A stretch of DNA of 64,000 nucleotides from Candidatus Binataceae bacterium. GTDB lineage: Bacteria > Desulfobacterota > Binatia > Binatales > Binataceae. This document shows positions 7,180-50,535 of the stretch, in pieces (within the stretch, counting starts at the first letter, position 1; each line of letters begins with the position of its first letter). Made by a program: the position numbers and the translations under genes. Location: assembly GCA_035308025.1 (NCBI GenBank), contig DATGHL010000004.1, positions 2,678 to 66,677 of the forward strand, written 5' to 3'. A model generated the notes under the pieces. The model did no database searches, was not told the DNA's origin, and was given only the letters and a program-made list of their open reading frames with translations.

Positions 7180-7270
7180 CTACGCTAGCGCAGCAAAGCG
7201 GAGGGAGCAGGCGAGTCTGACCAAAGGCCGCGCTCGCGGACTCGCCCGCCCCCTGGAGCTGCGTCAAGAT
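7180..7270 (-). repeat. dispersed REP/MITE-like intergenic repeat, copy A (inverted orientation, with internal insertion)
   Basis: '...gagcaggcgagtctg...agctgcgtcaagattctaag' is the reverse complement of the consensus gaTTCTTGACGCAGCTCGCAGACTCGCCTGCTCGCTCCGCGCGG..CCGCGCTCCGCTAGTGT. Confidence 0.6.
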
Positions 7271-8656: not shown

Positions 8657-8760
8657 TAAGATTTTTGACGCAGCTCGCAGACTCTTGACCTTGGCCGCGC
8701 GTCGCAGACTCCGCCGGCCCCTGTGCTCGCTGCGCGCGGCAACCGCGCTCCGCTAGTGTC
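8657..8760 (+). repeat. dispersed REP/MITE-like repeat, copy B
   Basis: 'tttgacgcagctcgcagactc...ctgtgctcgctgcgcgcggcaaccgcgctccgctagtgtc'. Sits between the convergent gntK and amidase genes. Confidence 0.65.
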
Positions 8761-11769: not shown

Positions 11770-12717
11770 ATGGCCAAATTTGACTTTCCATTAGCGCACG
11801 GACACCTCACGGACAGAGCAACGGGACCTCCCCTTGTTAACGAAATGCCGGGGGCGACGAACGGCGTCAGCGCGCCCGGCGCGATTGACGCGGGAGTGCT
11901 CGGTTCGATTCTGAGTCGGGTGCAAGCGCAGGCGGCGGCCGATCCTTTCAGTAATCCGATCCTGCTCTTCGCGCTGGATTTGATGCTGCGGATTGACCGC
12001 GGCGAAATCAATCTCGACGGTCTGGAGAGTTTGGTGCAGCGCCTCACCGCCGAGGCTTTTGCTGACCGTGCGAAGCGATTGGCGAGTTACCTCGGTGAAG
12101 AGGCGATCGCTGCGAGCGAGTCGGCGATTGCGGAACTGCTGGAGCGTAAGGCGCGCGCGGGCGGCTTTGAAGAATTTTGTACGGCGCTTGCCGCCACCAT
12201 CTTCGGCGTGGTCTTCACGGCCCATCCGACGTTCGCGATTACGCTGGAATTGGCTCGCAGCTTGGCCGAATTGGCAACCGCGCAGACGGTTAGCGGAGTG
12301 CCACTCGATCAGGCGGGACGGGATGCGCGGATGGAGGCGGCGATGCGCCTCGAGCATCGGCCGCCGGCGGAACTGTCGCTCGAGGTCGAGCACGCATGGG
12401 CGACCGAGGCGCTCAATCATGCGCACGACGCACTCGAGATGATGCATCGGATAGCTTTGCGCGTAGCCCGCGAGCGATGGCCGGAGCAATGGACGCGGCT
12501 CGAACCGCGTCTGGTAACGATGGCGTCGTGGGTCGGCTACGACCAGGACGGCCGCACCGATGTGACGTGGACGCGCACGATCGCGGCACGACTGGCGGAC
12601 AAGCTCGCGATGATCGAACGCCATCGGAGCAAAGTCCAAGGGCTGATGCGCGCGGCCGGCGATGATTTCCTGGCGACCTGGAGCCGCTCGGTGCGATGCT
12701 GTCTTCGGCGAGCGTAA
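11770..12717 (+). CDS. phosphoenolpyruvate carboxylase-like protein, N-terminal part (highly divergent)
   Basis: 'VFTAHPTF' corresponds to the PEPC 'VxTAHPTE' motif (the catalytic His region). Overlaps the next ORF by 22 nt in another frame. Confidence 0.45.
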   Translation: MAKFDFPLAHGHLTDRATGPPLVNEMPGATNGVSAPGAIDAGVLGSILSRVQAQAAADPFSNPILLFALDLMLRIDRGEINLDGLESLVQRLTAEAFADRAKRLASYLGEEAIAASESAIAELLERKARAGGFEEFCTALAATIFGVVFTAHPTFAITLELARSLAELATAQTVSGVPLDQAGRDARMEAAMRLEHRPPAELSLEVEHAWATEALNHAHDALEMMHRIALRVARERWPEQWTRLEPRLVTMASWVGYDQDGRTDVTWTRTIAARLADKLAMIERHRSKVQGLMRAAGDDFLATWSRSVRCCLRRA

Positions 12718-14792
12718 CGGTCACCCGCCAAATCAAATCGCTCGCGGCGGCGGAGCGCGACCCGGCGAAAACTGCGGCGTTCGGCCGCGCGATGGTGCGA
12801 GGGCGGGACACCGGACTCATCCAAACAGCGCCGCTCGTAGCGCTAATCGACAAAACATTAGATGCAGCACCAGATGACGAGCAGCGCGAGACGCTGCTAG
12901 TGCTGCGCGCGAGCCTGAAAACGCATGGCCTCGGCCTGGCGCATATTCATGTGCGGCTCAATTCGTCGCAATTGCATAATGCGGCGCGACGGCAGGTGGG
13001 ACTCGAAACGGAGCCGAGCGACCCGGCGAATCGGCGATCGTACTTTAATACCATCAACGATCTGCTCGAGCGGGTGCGTCCGATCGCGATCAGCTTCAAA
13101 TCGTTGACGGTGGAGCGGGCGTCGGCCAAGCGGTTGATGATGACCGTGGCGCAGATCGTCAAGTTTATCGACGGCGAAACGCCGATCCGGTTTTTGATTG
13201 CGGAAACCGAGACCGGCTTCACGCTGCTGGCGGCGCTCTATTATGCGCGGCTGTTCGGTGTCGAGGATCGCGTCGAACTCTCGCCGCTGTTCGAGACCGA
13301 GGAGGCCTTCGAGCGCGGCGAGCGGGTTATCGAGGAGGCGCTGAAGAGCCCGCACTACCGCGCTTATCTGCATCGGCAGGGCCGGCTCGCGGTGCAATTC
13401 GGGTTTTCCGATTCAGGACGATTTATCGGGCAGATGGCGGCGACATTCCGCATCGAGCGGTTGCGCCTGCGGCTTGCGCAATTGGTCGAACGCCATGGGC
13501 TCCACAAGCTCGAAGTTATCCTGTTCAACACGCACGGCGAATCGATCGGTCGCGGCGGGCATCCGCTGACGCTGGCCGATCGCTTGCGTTACGCGGCGCC
13601 GCCGCAGAGCCGGACCGAGTTCGAGCGGCGCGGGATACGTGTGAAGGAGGAGATAAGTTTCCAGGGCGGGGACGGCTATTTACTGTTCCTGACGCCTGCC
13701 GCAGCGACCGCCAGTATGCGGCAGTTTCTCAGTTTCGCGTTCGACGTGAGCGATGAGACCGGCAACTCAGGAATCTTGACGCAGCTCGGAGACTCGCCTG
13801 CTCGCTCCGCGCGGCAACCGCGCTCCACTGGTGATCCGATTTACGCTGCACCGGACTATACGGCGGAATTTTTTGCGACGGTGCAGCAGGAGTTCACCAG
13901 CCTGGTGGACGATCCGGACTACGCGGCGTTGCTGAGCCTGTTCGGCACGAATCTGCTTTACCCAGCCGGGTCACGGCCGGTGTCGCGTGAAACGGAAGAC
14001 TGGCGCAGGCCGACGACGATCGAGCATCCGGCGCAGTTGCGGGCGATCCCGAACAACGCGATCTTGCAGCAACTCGGTTTCATGGCGGTCACGCTGCACG
14101 GAGTCGGGCGCGCGGTCGCGAAAGACCCGGAACTTTTTCAGGTGATGCGTGAACGGTCAGCGCGCTTCCGGCGGGCGTCGCAGATGGTTTCGGCTGCGCT
14201 TGAGCACTCGGAGATCGACGTTTTGAGCGCCTATGTGAATACGCTGAATCCGGCGATGTGGCTGAATGGAGTGGGACGTACACGGCGTCCGGCGCGCGCC
14301 AAGGCCTTGCGCGAACTAGCGCGGCTGACCGGACGGCTGGATCGGTATGACCGGCTGGCGCGGCTGGTGCGGCGCCTGCAGTCGGATCAGTTGTGGCTGC
14401 TCGAGGCGATCGCGCCGGTCGAGACCACGCAACGGCGACGTCTGCTTCTGCTCCACGGAATCCGCGTGGCGCTGATCCAGCGGATCTGCCTGCTGGCGAC
14501 CGAGATCCCGAATTTCAGTCCGCAGCTCGGGGTGACCCGCGACGACATCCTGGAGCGGATCCTCGAGCTGGACGTGCCGCGCGCGATCGAGCGGCTGCGC
14601 CTGATTTTCCCGCGCGAGGATGGCCGGGCCGATGCAGACGGCGATTTCGGCGAAATCTCACAGTATCAGCCGGAGCCCTCGCTCTCCTACGCCGTCGAGC
14701 ACGACGCCTTGTTCGCTCCGATGTTGCGGCTGTTTGATTTGGCGCGGCGCATCGGAACGGCGATCACTTACGAGATTGGCGCGATCGGTTAG
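12696..14792 (+). CDS. phosphoenolpyruvate carboxylase-like protein, catalytic core (divergent), with an in-frame REP insertion
   Basis: 'VQFGFSDSGRFIGQ' matches the PEPC 'MxGYSDSxKDxG' motif. About 35 aa later 'LFNTHGESIGRGGHP' matches 'FHGRGGSIGRGGxP'. The motif order and spacing are the same as in bacterial PEPC. Confidence 0.5.
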   Translation: MLSSASVTVTRQIKSLAAAERDPAKTAAFGRAMVRGRDTGLIQTAPLVALIDKTLDAAPDDEQRETLLVLRASLKTHGLGLAHIHVRLNSSQLHNAARRQVGLETEPSDPANRRSYFNTINDLLERVRPIAISFKSLTVERASAKRLMMTVAQIVKFIDGETPIRFLIAETETGFTLLAALYYARLFGVEDRVELSPLFETEEAFERGERVIEEALKSPHYRAYLHRQGRLAVQFGFSDSGRFIGQMAATFRIERLRLRLAQLVERHGLHKLEVILFNTHGESIGRGGHPLTLADRLRYAAPPQSRTEFERRGIRVKEEISFQGGDGYLLFLTPAAATASMRQFLSFAFDVSDETGNSGILTQLGDSPARSARQPRSTGDPIYAAPDYTAEFFATVQQEFTSLVDDPDYAALLSLFGTNLLYPAGSRPVSRETEDWRRPTTIEHPAQLRAIPNNAILQQLGFMAVTLHGVGRAVAKDPELFQVMRERSARFRRASQMVSAALEHSEIDVLSAYVNTLNPAMWLNGVGRTRRPARAKALRELARLTGRLDRYDRLARLVRRLQSDQLWLLEAIAPVETTQRRRLLLLHGIRVALIQRICLLATEIPNFSPQLGVTRDDILERILELDVPRAIERLRLIFPREDGRADADGDFGEISQYQPEPSLSYAVEHDALFAPMLRLFDLARRIGTAITYEIGAIG
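13772..13834 (+). repeat. dispersed REP/MITE-like repeat, copy C, in-frame inside a coding sequence
   Basis: 'aatcttgacgcagctcggagactcgcctgctcgctccgcgcggcaaccgcgctccactggtga' translates to '...ILTQLGDSPARSARQPRSTG...' within the ORF. Confidence 0.6.
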
Positions 14793-28911: not shown

Positions 28912-31596
28912 ATGCCCGCAGACCGCAAACTTTCCCGCTATCAGGCCAAGCGCGACTTCAACCAAACCGCCGAACCCAGCGGCGAAAATGCCGTCTCGCC
29001 CTCTCAGGTCCGCCGCTTCGTCATTCAGAAACACGCGGCCACCAGCCTGCACTATGATTTCCGTCTCGAACTCGACGGCGTGTTCAAGTCGTGGGCCGTC
29101 ACCAAAGGGCCTTCGGTCGATCCGCATGATAAACGCCTCGCGGTCGAGGTCGAAGATCATCCGCTCGATTACGGCGACTTCGAAGGGACTATTCCGAAGG
29201 GACAATATGGCGGCGGCTCGGTGCAGTTGTGGGATCGCGGCTATTGGCTGCCGCAAGAAAGTGATCCCGCCGCCGCAATCGATCACGGCGAACTGAAGTT
29301 CGCGCTCGAAGGTGAACGGCTGCACGGCGAATGGGTGCTCGTGCGGATCAAAAATCGCCGGCCAGGCGACAAAAAAAACAACTGGCTGCTGATCAAGCAT
29401 CGCGACGCCTTCGCGCGTGACGATGAGAGCCGTGCCCTCTTAGCCGAGGATCGCTCGATCGCCTCGGGCCGTTCGATGGCGGAGATCGCTGCCGGCAAAG
29501 GCGACGGCCCCCGGCCGTTTATGCTCGCCGCCAAGCTAAACGCGGCGCCCGACGCTGTCTGGAACTCAGACCGCGGCGCCGCCGCAGAACTGCGTGCATC
29601 CGCGGCGCCCAATGTAAGGTTCTCAACGATCCCGACGGCGGCATCGAGCAAACCTGACCTTCGCGGTTCCGAGCCGATGCCGGAGTTCATTGCGCCCGAG
29701 TTATGCAAAGTAATCGAGCGGCCACCTTCAGGTCTCGATTGGGTTCACGAAGTCAAGCTCGACGGCTATCGGATTCAGGCGCGGGTCGAAGAGAGTCGGG
29801 TGGTGCTACGCACTCGGAGAGGTCTCGATTGGACTAGCAAGTTCAGTGCAATTGCGCACGCTGCGGCCCGTCTGCCTGAAGGAATCTACGATGGTGAGGT
29901 AGTAGCCCTCAACCAGAAAGGCGCGCCGGACTTTGGTGCATTGCAGAATGCCCTTGCCGAGGGCAAAACCGGCGAGCTGATCTATTTTATTTTCGACTTG
30001 ATATTCCTCGAGGGCAACAACCTGCAACAGATTTCACTGCGCGAGCGCAAGACGACCTTGAAACGCATCATCGAAACTCTCGAGGGCGATTCGCCCATCC
30101 GCTACGTCGAACATTTCGATGCGTCAGGCGAATCGGTGTTAGAAACCGCTCGAGAAATGTCACTCGAAGGTATCGTCTCGAAGCGTTTGGGCGAGATCTA
30201 TCGTCCCGGCCAACGCGACTGGACTAAGACGAAGTGCCGCGCCGGCCAGGAAGTCGTGCTCGGCGGATGGACGAGCGAAGGCGGCCGCTTCCGTTCTCTG
30301 CTTGCAGGAGTCTACCACGACAAACATCTCACCTATGCCGGACGGATCGGCACCGGCTTCGGCGAAGACGTGGTCAGGCAGATTCTTCCGCGGCTCAAAG
30401 AACTCACGACTGCGCGGAACCCATTCGAGGGTCAGAACGCACCGCGCAGTCAAAGCGGTATACATTGGCTGAAGCCCGAGTTAGTTGCGCAAATCGAGTT
30501 CGCCGGGTGGACCGCCGAGGGCATCGTGCGGGCAGGCGCGTTCAAAGGACTGCGCGAAGACAAACCCGCGTCTGAAGTGATTGCCGAACGCTCGGCGCCT
30601 GTACAGGAAGCAGACGCCGCCAAGCCCGTGCCTAAAACGAAAAGCTCAAACACCTTCGCATCGCCCAAACTCAAGACCGGCGCCAGCGCCAGCGTGATGG
30701 GTGTTGCGATTTCTCACCCGGACAAAGCGATGTGGCCCGATGCTGGTGACGGAAAGCCCGTAACCAAGCTCGACCTCGCGAATTACTACGAGGCTGTCGG
30801 CGACAGCCTCATTGAATACATAAATGGGCGTCCGTGCTCGATCGTGCGCGCACCTGACGGAATCCACAGCGAACATTTTTTTCAGCGCCATGCGATGCCG
30901 GGAATGTCCCAGTTGCTCTCTCTCGTGAGAGTCTCCGATGATCATCAGCCATACCTGCAGATCGATTCGGTCGAAGGACTGATCGCTCTTGCCCAGCTCG
31001 GCGCGCTGGAACTGCATCCGTGGAATTGCGCTGCGGGCGCGCCCGAGGAGCCGGGCCGCCTCGTCTTTGACCTCGACCCGGCGCCGGACCTCGATTTTCG
31101 CGCCGTCATCGAGTGCGCGCGCGAACTCCGTGAGCGCCTCAACTCTCTCGGCTTGACGAGCTTTTGTAAAACCACTGGCGGCAAAGGACTGCACGTCGTG
31201 TCGCCGCTCTCGCCTGGAAAAAAGGGTAAGCTTGATTGGCCGGTGGCGAAGGCCTTCGCTCGCGAAGTCGTCGCGCAAATGGCTGCCGACAGCCCGGCCC
31301 GCTACCTCATCACGATGGCTAAGAAAGACCGGCACGGTAAAGTTTTTCTTGACTATCTGCGCAACGATCGTATGGCGACAGCCGTTGCCGTTCTTTCGCC
31401 ACGTGCACGTGCGGGCGCGCCGGTTTCAATGCCGCTCGACTGGAGTCAAGTCAGAACGGGACTCGAGCCCACGCGTTTCACCGTCCGCACCGCTCTTTCG
31501 CTGCTCGCCAAGAGCGATCCGTGGAAGGATTATAGTAAGTCGGGGCGCTCATTGGAGAACGCAATCAAGCTCTTAGGGCAAAACACAATCGACTGA
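28912..31596 (+). CDS. ligD: DNA ligase D (phosphoesterase - ligase - polymerase/primase)
   Basis: PE domain '[22 protein letters not shown]', adenylation motif I '[13 protein letters not shown]', polymerase-domain motif '[11 protein letters not shown]'. Confidence 0.9.
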
Positions 31597-39563: not shown

Positions 39564-39655
39564 TGGCGGAGAGGGGGGGATTCGAACCCCCGAGACCCTT
39601 GCGAGCCTACACGCGTTCCAGGCGTGCGCCTTAAACCGGGCTCGGCCACCTCTCC
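39564..39655 (-). tRNA. tRNA-Ser (anticodon GGA), type II with long variable arm, CCA encoded
   Basis: Reverse complement reads GGAGAGG-UG-GCCGAGCCCGGUUUAAGGC-G-CACGC-CUGGAAC-GCGUG-UAGGCUCGCAAGGGUCUC-GGGGG-UUCGAAU-CCCCC-CCUCUCC-G-CCA. All stems pair and the discriminator is G. The 3' end faces the low-GC island. Confidence 0.9.
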
Positions 39656-39735: not shown

Positions 39736-40452
39736 TTACCAGTCAATCGATTCACGATCGCGGAAAAAACCCCCGCTCGGGCCGCGATCGGGGAGCGTGG
39801 CCAGCCACACCGCGGTCTCTGCGCCCTCTTCCACCGAACGCGGCGCGCCCACACCGCCCATCTCGGTGCGCACCCATCCGGGTGACATCGCGTTGACCAG
39901 TATATTGGTTCCGCGCAGGTCGGCAGCCATCACCCGCGTCATCGCGTTGAGCGCAGCCTTCGACACGCGATACGAGGGATAGCCGCCGGCGTCGAGTCCG
40001 TCGCCGTGTGTGCTCATATCCGTCGAAACATTGACGATACGGCCGTAACGATGCGCCCGCATCAGCGGGATCGCAGCCTGGCTGAGGAGCAGCGCGCCAG
40101 TCAGATTCACGGCGAGGGTCTGACGAAACGTCGCCGCACCGATATCGAGTGAGGTGTGGGCGCCGTCGAGGTAGATGCCGGCGTTGTTGACGAGGATATC
40201 CCAGCGCCCCAGCTCGGCCTCGGCGTAACGCTGAAAGCGCGCGATGCTCGAATCGTCGGCGACGTCGAGGGGATGGAAAACGATCTCGCCGGCGGACTTC
40301 TGCGCCGACTTGGTAAGTTGCGCGCAAGCGGCGGCGCCTTTGACCGCGTCGCGCGCCGTCAGCACAACCTTGAGATCCAAAGCGGCGAGCTGGCGGCAGA
40401 TCTCCAGCCCGATACCGCGATTCCCACCGGTCACTACCGCAAGTTTTTTCAC
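39736..40452 (-). CDS. short-chain dehydrogenase/reductase (SDR family)
   Basis: 'VVTGGNRGIGLEI' (TGxxxGxG), 'NNAGI', catalytic YxxxK. GTG start. Confidence 0.85.
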   Translation of the reverse strand: MKKLAVVTGGNRGIGLEICRQLAALDLKVVLTARDAVKGAAACAQLTKSAQKSAGEIVFHPLDVADDSSIARFQRYAEAELGRWDILVNNAGIYLDGAHTSLDIGAATFRQTLAVNLTGALLLSQAAIPLMRAHRYGRIVNVSTDMSTHGDGLDAGGYPSYRVSKAALNAMTRVMAADLRGTNILVNAMSPGWVRTEMGGVGAPRSVEEGAETAVWLATLPDRGPSGGFFRDRESIDW

Positions 40453-40494
40453 TTTTTCACCACTTTTTCACCGTCCGCGTGCTCCTCTCTGAGG

Positions 40495-40588
40495 CATTTT
40501 TCGACGCAGCTCGTAGACTCCTGAGCTCGGCCGCGCCTCGCAGACTCGTGTGCTCGCTCCGCGCGGCGGCCGTGCTTTGCTAGCGTGT
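40495..40588 (+). repeat. dispersed REP/MITE-like repeat, copy D
   Basis: 'ttcgacgcagctcgtagactcctgagctcggccgcgcctcgcagactcgtgtgctcgctccgcgcggcggccgtgctttgctagcgtgtc'. Confidence 0.6.
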
Positions 40589-40925
40589 CGCGCTCTTGCA
40601 CGATCGGGCGCGTCGATGTTTCACGTGAAACAGCTCCACAAGTTTTTGCGCGTCGACGGGCAAAGTGAAGCTGTTCCCCACCTAGCCGTGCTTGATGGTC
40701 ACGCTCTTGCAGGAGCGCACACCCGATGTTTCGCGTGAAACCTTTTTTTCACCGCCGGGCAGCGCAGCGCTCCATTGTCATGGCCTTTGCCCGATCGGAC
40801 GCGGGCGAATGTTTCACGCGAAACATTTTTGTCACCTTTGTTTCACTGCCCGGGCCGAGCGCCGCCCGGCGGTCGCCAGCCTTTGCTTGATCGTACCAAA
40901 TGTTTCACGCGAAACATCTTGTTAA
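40585..40925. repeat. array of four palindromes (TGTTTCACGYGAAACA), each preceded by a TTGCnYGATCG motif, spaced 84-109 bp
   Basis: Palindromes at ~40617-40632 (perfect, TGTTTCACGTGAAACA), 40727-40741, 40808-40827 (AATGTTTCACGCGAAACATT) and 40899-40917. Extra TTTTTCAC half-sites are scattered from 40441 to 40850. Confidence 0.6.
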
Positions 40926-40999
40926 CAGGTTTGTGTAGGGAGCGGTGCATAGTGCAGGTTTTCACCCTTGACGTGATCTTCCATAAACGGCGCCCGGGT

Positions 41000-41860
41000 C
41001 TAATTCTGCGCGCAAAAAAGAATCGTCTCGTTCGAGGTGCGCAGTTTGCCGTCGGGCTGGACGAAGGCGCGAGCGGCGTTGGTCACTGCCGCGATAATCT
41101 GGTCGCGCAACGCCGGCGTTTGCCGTTCGAGCAGGGCGCGAAACGGCGCCGCGACGTCGCTGCGGAACTGCGCGAGCGCTTCGGGCGCGGCGAACTCGAA
41201 AACTACCTGCAGGCGTTTCACTTGCACGTCTTTGAAGCCCGCCGCCGCAAGCGCGTGAGTGAGAATCGACGGGTCGGCAAGCCGCAGCGGTTCGAGCGCG
41301 TCGAACGGCGGCGAGGGCAGGCCCGCGAGCTTGCGCACTTGATCGGTGCCCAGCGTGATCATCGGGACCTTGTCGCGCGTCGACCAGACCGCGGTCGCGA
41401 GGCGGGTGCCGGGTTTCATCCGGCTGCGGATACCGGTCAAGGCGCGATCGATGTCGGGCATGAACATAAAGCCCCAGCGGCAGACCACGGCGTCGAAGTC
41501 GCGCTCGCTGAGCGCGAGCGCTTCGGCGTCGCTTTCCTTGAACTCAAGGTTGTTGAGGCCAAGGGCCGCGGCGCGCTCCCGCGCGATCGCGAGCATTCCG
41601 GCGGATTGATCGGTGGCGATCACGCGGCCCGTCGCGCCGACCCGTCGCGCCGCGGTCACCGCCGGCTCACCGGTGCCGGTGGCGATATCGAGCACGCGGG
41701 CGCCGGGCCTCACGCCCGCCAGTTCGACGAGGCGGTCGCTGACGTGCTGTGCCGCCTGCTCGAAGATCGGCCACCATTTTTTCCAGCCTGCGGCGGCGGC
41801 GTCCCAATCGCGTTTCTGCTCGCTCTTCAAGCGTGTAAAATCAGCGTTCTGATCAGTCAT
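41000..41860 (-). CDS. class I SAM-dependent methyltransferase
   Basis: 'ARVLDIATGTGEPAV' motif I. About 286 aa. Confidence 0.7.
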   Translation of the reverse strand: MTDQNADFTRLKSEQKRDWDAAAAGWKKWWPIFEQAAQHVSDRLVELAGVRPGARVLDIATGTGEPAVTAARRVGATGRVIATDQSAGMLAIARERAAALGLNNLEFKESDAEALALSERDFDAVVCRWGFMFMPDIDRALTGIRSRMKPGTRLATAVWSTRDKVPMITLGTDQVRKLAGLPSPPFDALEPLRLADPSILTHALAAAGFKDVQVKRLQVVFEFAAPEALAQFRSDVAAPFRALLERQTPALRDQIIAAVTNAARAFVQPDGKLRTSNETILFCAQN

Positions 41861-42075: not shown

Positions 42076-43491
42076 TTATTCGCGCGACACGACGCTACGT
42101 AGCACGACGAGGCCGCGGAGATGCGCGAGCAGATGCGGATAGCGGGGCGCGAGGTCGGCGGCGTGCGCGGCGGCGTAGGTGTCGCCGACGATCACTACCG
42201 CAGGCGGCGGCTGCGAATCGAGCGGCGCCACCGCGGGCGCTGATTGCATGTTGCGCAGATAGTAGCGCACCACATTGGCTGCGTAGCGCGGCGCGACGCC
42301 AATCGCGCCGTTAGCGGTCAAACCTGTGGCAGCGACCGCGGTCGCTTCGGCCCATTGGTCGCCGTGCGCCTTCGCGTACCAATCCGCATCGTGGGCGAGC
42401 GCAACCGCGACGACTAGCGCCAAGGCGCCCGGGCGGAAGGCCGGCGGGCGAAGTTCCAGCAGCCCGATTGTGGCCAGGATGAAAAACGGCGCGAAGCTGG
42501 CAAGGAGGTAGCGCTCGACGAAGGCGGGGCGGATCGCGAAGGAGACGATGGTCAGGATGAGCGGCGGCGCGAAAGTCCAAAGCAGCAGATAGCTTATGGC
42601 CTCGCGACGCCAAGCCCATCCGCGGGCGACACCGGTGACAACGAGAATCGCGAGCAGCGGGAAACCATATGTGCCCGTGGCTTTATTGAACAGCGCGATC
42701 GGCGCGCCAATCGAAGGACGCGAAATCCAATCCCAGGTCGCGGCGTCGGGGGCGCCACCGCGCGCGTGCAGATAGAGAATCAGAGGCGGCGTGAGCAGCA
42801 GCAACCCGCCGACTAGCGCGGCGACGCAACGAGCAACGCGGGCGGCGGCGCGTTGCCGCGACCTGACCAGCACGAGCGTCACGTAGAGCCCCTCCGGGAT
42901 GAGCACCAGGATCGCGCTGAAAGTGGCGCTGATCGCGAGCGCGGTCAGCGCGGCGGTCGCCGCATAGTCAGTTGCTCTGGAGCGACGGAGCGCACGCAAG
43001 AAACTGCCGACTTGTCCGAGGGTGAGCGCCAGCGCGAGCGGATACATGCGCGCCTCACGCGAATACTTGATCGTGACGAGATTGACGGCGAAGAGCAGCG
43101 CGGCAATCGCCGCGAGCAACTTGTCATCCGCGATGTCGTGCGCCGGCGCTGGGGCCGTTTGCGGAGCGTCGCGGAACGACGACAGTGCGAGAATCTCGCG
43201 CGTGACGAAGAAGACCATCACGATCGCGAGCGTGCCGGCCACGGCCGACAGCGAGCGCATCGCGATGAGACTGTCGCCGGCGGCAGCGATCCACAGATGC
43301 AGTGCTACGTCGTGCAACCCGAGCTCGCCGGGATTGAGCCGCGCCTGGGCGCGCACCACCTGGAACATCGATGGGGCGGTCGCTGCTGCCCACGAGGCTC
43401 CCTCGTCGGCCGAGAGTTCCAACGTGTCCAGATTGACGAAGCGTAGATAGCCGCCGAGCAGGATCGCGAGGGCCAAAGTCGCCAGTGGCAA
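42076..43491 (-). CDS. polytopic membrane protein, GT-C-like glycosyltransferase (PMT/ArnT-related)
   Basis: First loop 'LDTLELSADEGASW' (DE motif), then about 10 TM helices. Confidence 0.4.
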   Translation of the reverse strand: MPLATLALAILLGGYLRFVNLDTLELSADEGASWAAATAPSMFQVVRAQARLNPGELGLHDVALHLWIAAAGDSLIAMRSLSAVAGTLAIVMVFFVTREILALSSFRDAPQTAPAPAHDIADDKLLAAIAALLFAVNLVTIKYSREARMYPLALALTLGQVGSFLRALRRSRATDYAATAALTALAISATFSAILVLIPEGLYVTLVLVRSRQRAAARVARCVAALVGGLLLLTPPLILYLHARGGAPDAATWDWISRPSIGAPIALFNKATGTYGFPLLAILVVTGVARGWAWRREAISYLLLWTFAPPLILTIVSFAIRPAFVERYLLASFAPFFILATIGLLELRPPAFRPGALALVVAVALAHDADWYAKAHGDQWAEATAVAATGLTANGAIGVAPRYAANVVRYYLRNMQSAPAVAPLDSQPPPAVVIVGDTYAAAHAADLAPRYPHLLAHLRGLVVLRSVVSRE

Positions 43492-46607: not shown

Positions 46608-46680
46608 ACACGCTAGCGGAGCGCTCCGGCGCGGAGCGAGCAGGCGAGTCTGCGAGCTGCGTCAAGGATTCTAGAATGGC
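46608..46680 (-). repeat. dispersed REP/MITE-like repeat, copy F (inverted)
   Basis: 'gctagcggagcgctccggcgcggagcgagcaggcgagtctgcgagctgcgtcaaggattctag' is the reverse complement of the consensus. Lies between YciI and the sigma factor. Confidence 0.65.
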
Positions 46681-47981: not shown

Positions 47982-48066
47982 GCCGCGCGTCGCGGACTCG
48001 GATTCCGACGCAGCTCGCAGACTCGCCTGCTCGTTCCGGCGCGCAGCGCGCCTCCACTAGTGAATT
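47982..48066 (+). repeat. dispersed REP/MITE-like repeat, copy G
   Basis: 'ccgacgcagctcgcagactcgcctgctcgttccggcgcgcagcgcgcctccactagtgaat', preceded by 'gcgcgtcgcggactcg' as in copy A. Confidence 0.65.
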
Positions 48067-50470: not shown

Positions 50471-50535
50471 GATTCTTGACGCAGCTGCGGACTCGCCTGC
50501 TCGCTACGCGCGGAGGCCGCGCTCCGCTAGTGTGT
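50471..50535 (+). repeat. dispersed REP/MITE-like repeat, copy H
   Basis: 'gattcttgacgcagctgcggactcgcctgctcgctacgcgcggaggccgcgctccgctagtgtg'. Confidence 0.65.

Follow-up and report, generated by a model that had tools for sequence, protein, structure and literature searches.

The closest described counterparts of the locus considered here are chromosomal parS sites, at which ParB/Spo0J binds a consensus palindrome, TGTTTCAC-GTGAAACA (10.1101/724823). The consensuses tabulated in PMC7022226 (Table 1) stay close to TGTTNCACGTGAAACA across many phyla, with TGTTNCACGTGAAACA itself given for B. subtilis and TGTTTCACGTGAAACA for Hyphomonas neptunium. Multiple parS sites per chromosome are the usual state, and one site suffices to nucleate a complex in model species (PMC7022226). 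Several close sites together make up one centromere region in P. aeruginosa (parS1–4), M. xanthus (22 sites) and S. coelicolor (21 sites), and repression of a neighbouring promoter by intergenic parS is described in P. aeruginosa for PA0011 and PA0013 and for parS3 and parS4 (PMC7022226). Half-sites (GTTTCAC / GTTCCAC) are bound by the ParB of P. aeruginosa and some others, and in the Caulobacter co-crystal R173 of ParB contacts the first G of the half-site (10.1101/724823). Noc binding sites (NBS, TATTTCCCGGGAAATA) are also 16-bp palindromes recognized by a ParB-family protein, and Noc is restricted to Firmicutes (10.1101/724823).

We compared these systems with an array of four palindromes in a 64-kb window, by which we mean the whole stretch of DNA that was analysed. 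The window is contained in a 73-kb soil metagenome contig (JGI 3300005541 Ga0070733_10000116). Its TrmFO protein is 74–80% identical to proteins of Candidatus Binataceae metagenome-assembled genomes (MAGs; phylum Binatota), and SDR and Mrp homologues are labelled with the same taxon, Binataceae. Among the genes of the contig are the chromosomal housekeeping genes trmFO, HU, thiI, def, lptC/lptA and rpoN. On the minus strand the order is trmFO, ppx/gppA, HU, a gene for a 471-aa protein, a SAM methyltransferase (MTase) gene, the array, the SDR gene and tRNA-Ser(GGA), after which lies the remnant of an IS1595 transposase. The features of the region are as follows.

39736–40452, minus strand: gene for an oxidoreductase of the SDR family, downstream of the array; the inserted DNA supplies its first codons, VKK.
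40445–40472, plus strand: three TTTTTCAC(T/C) motifs at the left end of the cassette; the SDR gene has its GTG start within this stretch (40452, minus strand).
40453–40999, no strand: the whole 547-bp lineage-specific insertion, from the MTase stop to the SDR start, as judged against relatives.
40499–40586, plus strand: REP-like element, copy D, with an internal partial duplication, between the cassette left end and unit 1.
40596–40606, plus strand: upstream box of unit 1, TTGCACGATCG, exact TTGC-NN-GATCG.
40617–40632, no strand: putative parS site 1, TGTTTCACGTGAAACA, 0 mismatches to the consensus.
40707–40717, plus strand: upstream box of unit 2, TTGCAGGAGCG, degenerate, placed by alignment of the units.
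40727–40742, no strand: putative parS site 2, TGTTTCGCGTGAAACC, 2 mismatches.
40745–40753, plus strand: TTTTTCACC motif in the tail of unit 2, from a motif scan.
40787–40797, plus strand: upstream box of unit 3, TTGCCCGATCG, exact TTGC-NN-GATCG.
40810–40825, no strand: putative parS site 3, TGTTTCACGCGAAACA, 1 mismatch.
40883–40893, plus strand: upstream box of unit 4, TTGCTTGATCG, exact TTGC-NN-GATCG.
40901–40916, no strand: putative parS site 4, TGTTTCACGCGAAACA, 1 mismatch, with the left flank GATCGTACCAAA, which is also found at parS sites of unrelated metagenome contigs.
41000–41860, minus strand: gene for a SAM-dependent methyltransferase, with which the conserved block TrmFO-Ppx-HU-X471-MTase ends.

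Searching the whole 64-kb window for TGTTTCACGTGAAACA with up to three mismatches, with 100 shuffles as the null, returned four matches, all of them inside the spacer between the MTase and SDR genes. The shuffles gave an expectation of 0.11 matches and none of the 100 reached four, which confirms the four-palindrome array that a preliminary description of this DNA had reported. Two of the palindrome starts given there, 40617 and 40727, hold; the other two, placed at 40808 and 40899, move to 40810 and 40901. The start-to-start distances are accordingly 110, 83 and 91 bp, so that the earlier value of 91 bp stands and those of 109 and 84 bp do not. The unusually long non-coding stretch, put at about 550 bp, measures 547 bp between the SDR start at 40452 and the MTase stop at 41000, and the REP copy D reported within it is real (40499–40586) and belongs to a family with at least seven copies in the window. 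Upstream of the palindromes the same description had placed a conserved TTGC-N-GATCG box at a distance of 6–11 nt. The box is present, with two variable bases instead of one and at 7–12 nt, and is exact in three of the four units and degenerate in unit 2. By itself TTGC-NN-GATCG is not rare (5 in the window versus 2.0 expected). The SDR GTG start is indeed embedded in reiterated GTGAAAAA(G/A), which reads on the gene strand as two copies of GTGAAAAAG and one of GTGAAAAAA.

Site 1 is letter for letter the published parS consensus, and sites 2–4 differ from it by one or two bases, the central CACGTG being altered in three of the four sites. The earlier statement that the motif matches no known operator is therefore wrong, since the 16-mer is consensus parS (10.1101/724823; PMC7022226). 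Publications containing the 16-mer concern ParB, parS, chromosome organization or replication origins, among the matches listed. As a positive control, the motif adjoins parA and parB genes in other metagenome contigs (L086 and L087–L089), recognizable by NQKGGVGKTTT, the ParA Walker box, and GERRWRA, the ParB arginine patch. The sites also have the rarity and clustering looked for in parS: all four lie inside 300 bp, and the rest of the 64 kb has none. Identity among the four units is 90% in the 16-bp cores, compared with 61% in the upstream and 52% in the downstream flanks, which shows that the cores are constrained and that the duplicated flanks are decaying; a tandem duplication with later selection on the cores would produce this pattern. 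The chromosomal housekeeping genes around the array, the usual multiplicity of parS, the homologous cassette in a second Binataceae contig and the insertion history of the MTase–SDR gap (both below) also speak for parS. We consider it very probable that the four palindromes represent chromosomal parS, at which a ParABS segregation system nucleates. The motif is thus already known and ordinary, and the array is a further instance of the canonical ParB-binding centromere site, so the motif itself teaches nothing new. The NBS differs from the array sites at specificity positions 1 and 6 of each half-site, and the window belongs to Binatota, outside the reported range of Noc.

The array resembles the chromosomal parS of B. 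subtilis Spo0J, Caulobacter and Hyphomonas (TGTTNCACGTGAAACA) in its identical palindrome and in being multiple, intergenic and chromosomal. It differs from them in two respects. In the model organisms, as in L086 and L087–L089, parS lies beside parAB, whereas the array has no par genes nearby: neither ParA nor ParB was found in the window (Pfam on large open reading frames and a six-frame motif scan) or in the adjoining 6.5 kb of contig examined past its high-coordinate end, which leaves a par-gene-free span of about 40 kb on one side of the array and 30 kb on the other. Its location is also not conserved among relatives. Several close sites are shared with P. aeruginosa, M. xanthus and S. 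coelicolor; unlike those clusters, the array packs four sites into 300 bp as tandem duplicates of a unit of approximately 85–110 bp with a shared flank. We have not found this tight tandem-unit organization described in the publications consulted.

Elements resembling half-sites accompany the full palindromes. The GTTTCAC heptamer bound by P. aeruginosa ParB recurs in the array, which holds 7 of the 15 copies in the window (5.3 expected), and the copy at 40840 is the one array copy outside a full site. TTTTTCACY occurs four times in the window (40445, 40453, 40464 and 40745) versus 0.44 expected, each time inside the array region, and degenerate counterparts of TTTTTCACC lie at 40829–40836, 40838–40847 and 40958–40967. 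The TTTTTCAC motifs match the half-site GTTTCAC at six of seven positions. They lack the first G contacted by R173, which makes binding by ParB doubtful; they may be weak ParB half-site contacts or just decayed units.

To place the array in an evolutionary setting, we compared the junction with its orthologues. The block trmFO-ppx-HU-X471-MTase is kept in about ten Binataceae loci. The gap between the MTase and SDR genes is 8 bp with nothing in it in L100–L102 (SDR 72% identical to that of the window), 10 bp and likewise empty in L099 (80%), 95 bp with one REP element and no parS in L098 (79%), 304 bp, known by length alone, in the P0002 contig (89%), and 547 bp with the REP element and four parS units in the window itself (100%). 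The REP element in the L098 gap is of the same family as copy D. Because the gap in relatives is 8–95 bp and free of parS, the 547-bp spacer is a lineage-specific insertion. The SDR protein begins with VKK in the window and in the P0002 contig, which is 4,553 bp long and comes from JGI sample 3300050821, and with M(ATQ/PPK/AIS)R in more distant orthologues; the insertion thus also rewrote the first SDR codons. No parS was found within 10 kb of trmFO at any of 80 trmFO loci from reference genomes (about 45 related Binatia), and approximately 1.5 Mb of related loci gave no parS matches. Downstream of the MTase, the sequence of these relatives shares nothing with the window. Taken with the lack of parS at other Binataceae mrp loci (below), the lack of parS near trmFO in relatives indicates that the position of the array is evolutionarily young.

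The spacer consists of the REP element and about 4.5 tandem units. The four units align over approximately 110 nt, of which about 45 nt lie upstream of each parS. Units 1 and 2 carry a copy of the REP 3' end in their upstream parts, which places at least one duplication after the arrival of the REP element. The comparison thus shows that the array was inserted at a once-compact MTase–SDR junction of a Binataceae chromosome, and that REP insertion and tandem duplication then enlarged it from a roughly two-site cassette to four sites. Of the earlier suggestion that the units are a decayed tandem duplication of a promoter-operator unit, the tandem duplication is borne out, with a unit of approximately 85–110 bp, and the operator part is not. 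In abutting a REP element and apparently growing at a REP-occupied junction the array is like REP and BIME clusters; unlike them, its unit carries a protein-binding centromere site, and it is found at only two loci as against dozens of dispersed REP copies.

The second locus lies on L090 (identical with L103), a Binataceae contig of 140 kb in which the REP family of the window is also present. Two parS sites, separated by 71 bp, lie there upstream of a gene for Mrp/NBP35 and not of an SDR gene, and the flanks align end to end with the window cassette. The left end of the cassette (TTTTCAC...CGTCC) is common to both; a 21-nt stretch, TGTCGCGCTCTTGCACGATCG, which lies at 40586–40606 in the window and is identical in L090, precedes the first L090 site; and the tail after the second L090 site (TAACAnnTTTGTG...GCA.AGTG....TTTCA) matches unit 4. 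The preliminary description had held that the lack of a conserved counterpart in related genomes would count against its reading of the units. At the orthologous locus there is indeed neither spacer nor parS, but the homologous cassette in the related contig L090 provides a counterpart elsewhere. The mrp loci of two other Binataceae have no parS. In a further contig (L106, Mrp 88% identical) the sequence ends within the box, at 69 bp upstream of mrp, and keeps the cassette left end CCGGACGGTGAAAAA fused to the ancestral leader of that gene. About 78 kb separate the mrp locus from the trmFO locus in one MAG contig, so both insertion sites may share one chromosomal neighbourhood, as would be expected of a multi-site centromere region.

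If the sites act as ParB/Spo0J sites do in other bacteria (PMC7022226; 10.1101/724823), a ParB dimer would recognize each 16-bp palindrome through its helix-turn-helix domain, bind CTP, close into a clamp and slide onto neighbouring DNA, and the next dimer would replace it. With this mode of clamp loading, four sites within 300 bp would make a high-capacity loading zone. The array would then seed a ParB–DNA partition complex over the surrounding kilobases, to be moved by ParA; such a complex usually, and here probably, also loads the SMC condensin. ParB on the array would probably dampen transcription into the SDR gene, the start of which lies at the edge of the cassette.

Several other explanations have to be weighed against parS. 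The preliminary description favoured operators of some new dimeric factor defining a regulon, that is, an array serving a dedicated transcription factor that cooperatively regulates the SDR gene or a wider set of genes. The array does lie directly upstream of the SDR start, 16-bp palindromes are typical of operators, and repression of adjacent promoters by ParB at intergenic parS in P. aeruginosa (PMC7022226) makes a regulatory side effect plausible. However, a sequence identical to the parS consensus calls for no new factor; no regulator gene adjoins the array, and the 64 kb hold no further copies that could define a regulon. The SDR orthologues of relatives have neither spacer nor palindrome, which indicates that the SDR gene does not need the array, and the homologous cassette in L090/L103 precedes the unrelated gene mrp. 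We regard a dedicated operator array as very unlikely, and recognizing parS averts a false lead towards a new regulon. An iteron-like replication or partition site had been suggested as well. The partition half of that suggestion agrees with the parS consensus. The replication half, a replication origin or an iteron array for an initiator protein, could draw on direct repeats with a period of approximately 90–110 bp, on the T-rich TTTTTCAC, which is loosely DnaA-box-like (TTWTNCACA), and on a shallow minimum of the cumulative GC skew near 32–42 kb of the window. Against these stand the absence of dnaA, dnaN and rep genes from the window (Pfam scans), the lack of DnaA-box enrichment (6 matches versus 3.8 expected in the window, and 0 in the spacer) and the absence of an AT-rich unwinding element, the lowest GC content of any 100-nt window being 50%. 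Neither a sigma-70 promoter nor a terminator consensus was found in the spacer, and no Rfam family matches it. Gene orientation does not switch at the array, and the entire spacer is missing in relatives, which would be impossible for an essential origin. An origin at this position is hardly credible.

A third view is that the array is a neutral by-product, repeat DNA with parS in it that was copied by REP-associated recombination or tandem slippage and adds little or nothing to segregation, with the real centromere beside parAB elsewhere. The array is young and locus-specific, parAB is not nearby and three of the four cores are imperfect; moreover, a REP element adjoins it, with a tRNA gene and an IS1595 remnant close by, which together mark the region as prone to rearrangement. 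This view is at odds with the identity of the cores (90%, versus 52–61% in the flanks) and with the retention of the cassette at two independent loci. ParB, wherever present, would bind any parS close to the consensus, and in model species one site is enough to nucleate a complex (PMC7022226), so a silent array is hard to imagine. We therefore judge a neutral origin improbable and retain the reading of the array as parS sites.

That reading admits an extension, towards which we are sceptical, in which the sites belong to a mobile 'centromere cassette' whose extended flank spread or has a second function, so that the position of the centromere evolves by movement. Such a cassette might, speculatively, comprise three parts: the left end CCGGACGGTGAAAAA, an imperfect parS preceded by its box, and a perfect parS followed by a tail. 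Conceivably, it was placed at two or more gene junctions (between MTase and SDR, and upstream of mrp) in one Binataceae lineage. It may, on the same tentative footing, have abutted and rewritten the start of the downstream gene at two of three junctions (SDR here and mrp in L090/L103), and tandem duplication could perhaps have expanded it after placement. If the cassette truly moves, parS position could trace the rewiring of SMC loading and origin positioning in evolution. Apart from any mobility, the array marks a likely centromere region in a member of the uncultured phylum Binatota. The series of junctions, from 8 through 95 and 304 to 547 bp by REP insertion and tandem duplication, shows a centromere array being born and is a clear instance of turnover of centromere sites which, in this contig at least, takes place at a distance from parAB.

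Finally, we asked how far the composite unit extends beyond these contigs. The pattern TTGCNNGATCG-N(4–14)-ATGTTTCRCGYGAAAC, scanned over 241 million metagenome records, was found in only 11 stretches (about 8 independent loci), none of which had more than one composite unit. Matches this few, all to single units, indicate that the TTGCnnGATCG box is not a general partner of parS, and we rejected the combination of box and parS as a general element; the box is residual homology between the units. Four of the composite stretches do share a longer flank, GATCG(T/G)ACCAA(A/G)A, with unit 4. The left flank of that unit, TTGCttGATCGTACCAAA, recurs as TTGCnnGATCG(T/G)ACCAA(A/G)A beside a single perfect parS in L091, L093, L095 and L096. 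In L091 the flank lies within a 40-bp palindrome, ATCGTACCAAAA-parS-TTTTGGTACGAT; this contig is Methylocella-like and alphaproteobacterial, and so belongs to a phylum other than that of the window. The extended flank TTGCnnGATCGTACCAAAA-parS-TTTTGGTACGAT is thus found in a Methylocella-like alphaproteobacterium and in other soil contigs, and the array thereby exposes a longer flank common to contigs of different phyla.

Two candidate identities for the extended flank were discarded: a conserved open reading frame, because the reading frames diverge right after parS, and a known RNA, because there was no Rfam match. A search for the extended palindrome on plasmids matched the core parS alone. 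In pattern form, the extended palindrome can be written as ATCGTACCAAAANGTTTCACGTGAAACNTTTTGGTACGAT. The shared flank could reflect horizontal spread or, alternatively, a second function, such as a ParB-controlled extended -10 promoter or a site for an accessory protein. Read away from parS, the flank is TTTTGG-TACGAT, which resembles an extended -10 element.

A conserved extended flank, TTGCnnGATCG(T/G)ACCAAAA-parS-TTTTGGTA(C/A)GAT, surrounds parS (the 16-bp ParB-binding palindrome) in the window array and in four metagenome contigs that each carry a single perfect site. Contigs with this flank span at least two phyla, being represented in Binatota and in a Methylocella-like alphaproteobacterium. 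The flank is non-coding and corresponds to no known RNA.

Extended parS flanks
Window, 40883-40925
L091, 6474-6520
L093, ~1120-1175
L095, ~805-850
L096, ~620-665

Three further metagenome contigs have five to seven parS sites surrounding parA-parB. All seven sites are perfect in L087, which derives from a human-gut metagenome, and L088 and L089 contain one near-perfect site each. Some pairs in this set are spaced exactly 175 bp apart, and tight repeated parS arrays thus also adjoin par operons in other bacteria.

parS sites around parA-parB
L087, 46-3343
L088, 6252-10098
L089, 9170-11767

The window array adjoins one copy of an intergenic REP-like family (repeat length ~60-90 nt; consensus TTGACGCAGCTCGCAGACTCGCCTGCTCGCTCCGCGCGGCAGCCGCGCTCCGCTAGTGT), some copies of which contain an internal partial duplication. 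Other Binataceae contigs hold the same family at 82-90% identity, including L090, which has a two-site parS cassette upstream of mrp, and L098, in which the gap between the methyltransferase and SDR genes contains REP-like sequence only.

REP-like repeats
Window, 7187-7219, minus strand
Window, 8663-8759
Window, 13774-13834
Window, 40499-40586, adjoining the parS array
Window, 46620-46666, minus strand
Window, 48003-48063
Window, 50477-50533
L090, 6979-7157
L098, 4060-4110

Directly downstream of the SDR gene is a tRNA-Ser(GGA) gene (39564-39655, minus strand), followed by a fragmented IS1595-family transposase (37.9-38.9 kb) that retains a zinc ribbon and a partial DDE domain. Synteny between the window and its relatives stops in this region, where the relatives instead encode proteins of 535-538 aa that match no Pfam family. 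Directly after the methyltransferase or SDR gene, relatives have a gene for a ~525-538-aa protein without Pfam domains, present as one to three tandem paralogues (L008, 14990-16567; equivalents in L013, L015, L017, L018, L022, L023 and L045); this gene is absent from the window. The 471-aa protein encoded between HU and the methyltransferase (42076-43491, minus strand) had no Pfam match; its 452-aa counterpart in three relatives (L100-L102) is annotated with PMT_2/TMEM260-like glycosyltransferase domains.

The trmFO-block and mrp neighbourhoods are the two parS-cassette locations seen in other lineages. They are only ~78 kb apart in one Binataceae MAG (CAWCJN010000004.1; trmFO locus, 551649-572917; mrp locus, 473267-494319).

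Elsewhere in the window, two successive overlapping plus-strand ORFs (11770-12717 and 12696-14792) match separate parts of the phosphoenolpyruvate carboxylase family profile, which could reflect a frameshifted or split gene, or an assembly error. The window also encodes a full-length LigD with phosphoesterase, ligase and primase-polymerase domains (28912-31596, plus strand), which equips the organism with a ligase for non-homologous end joining.
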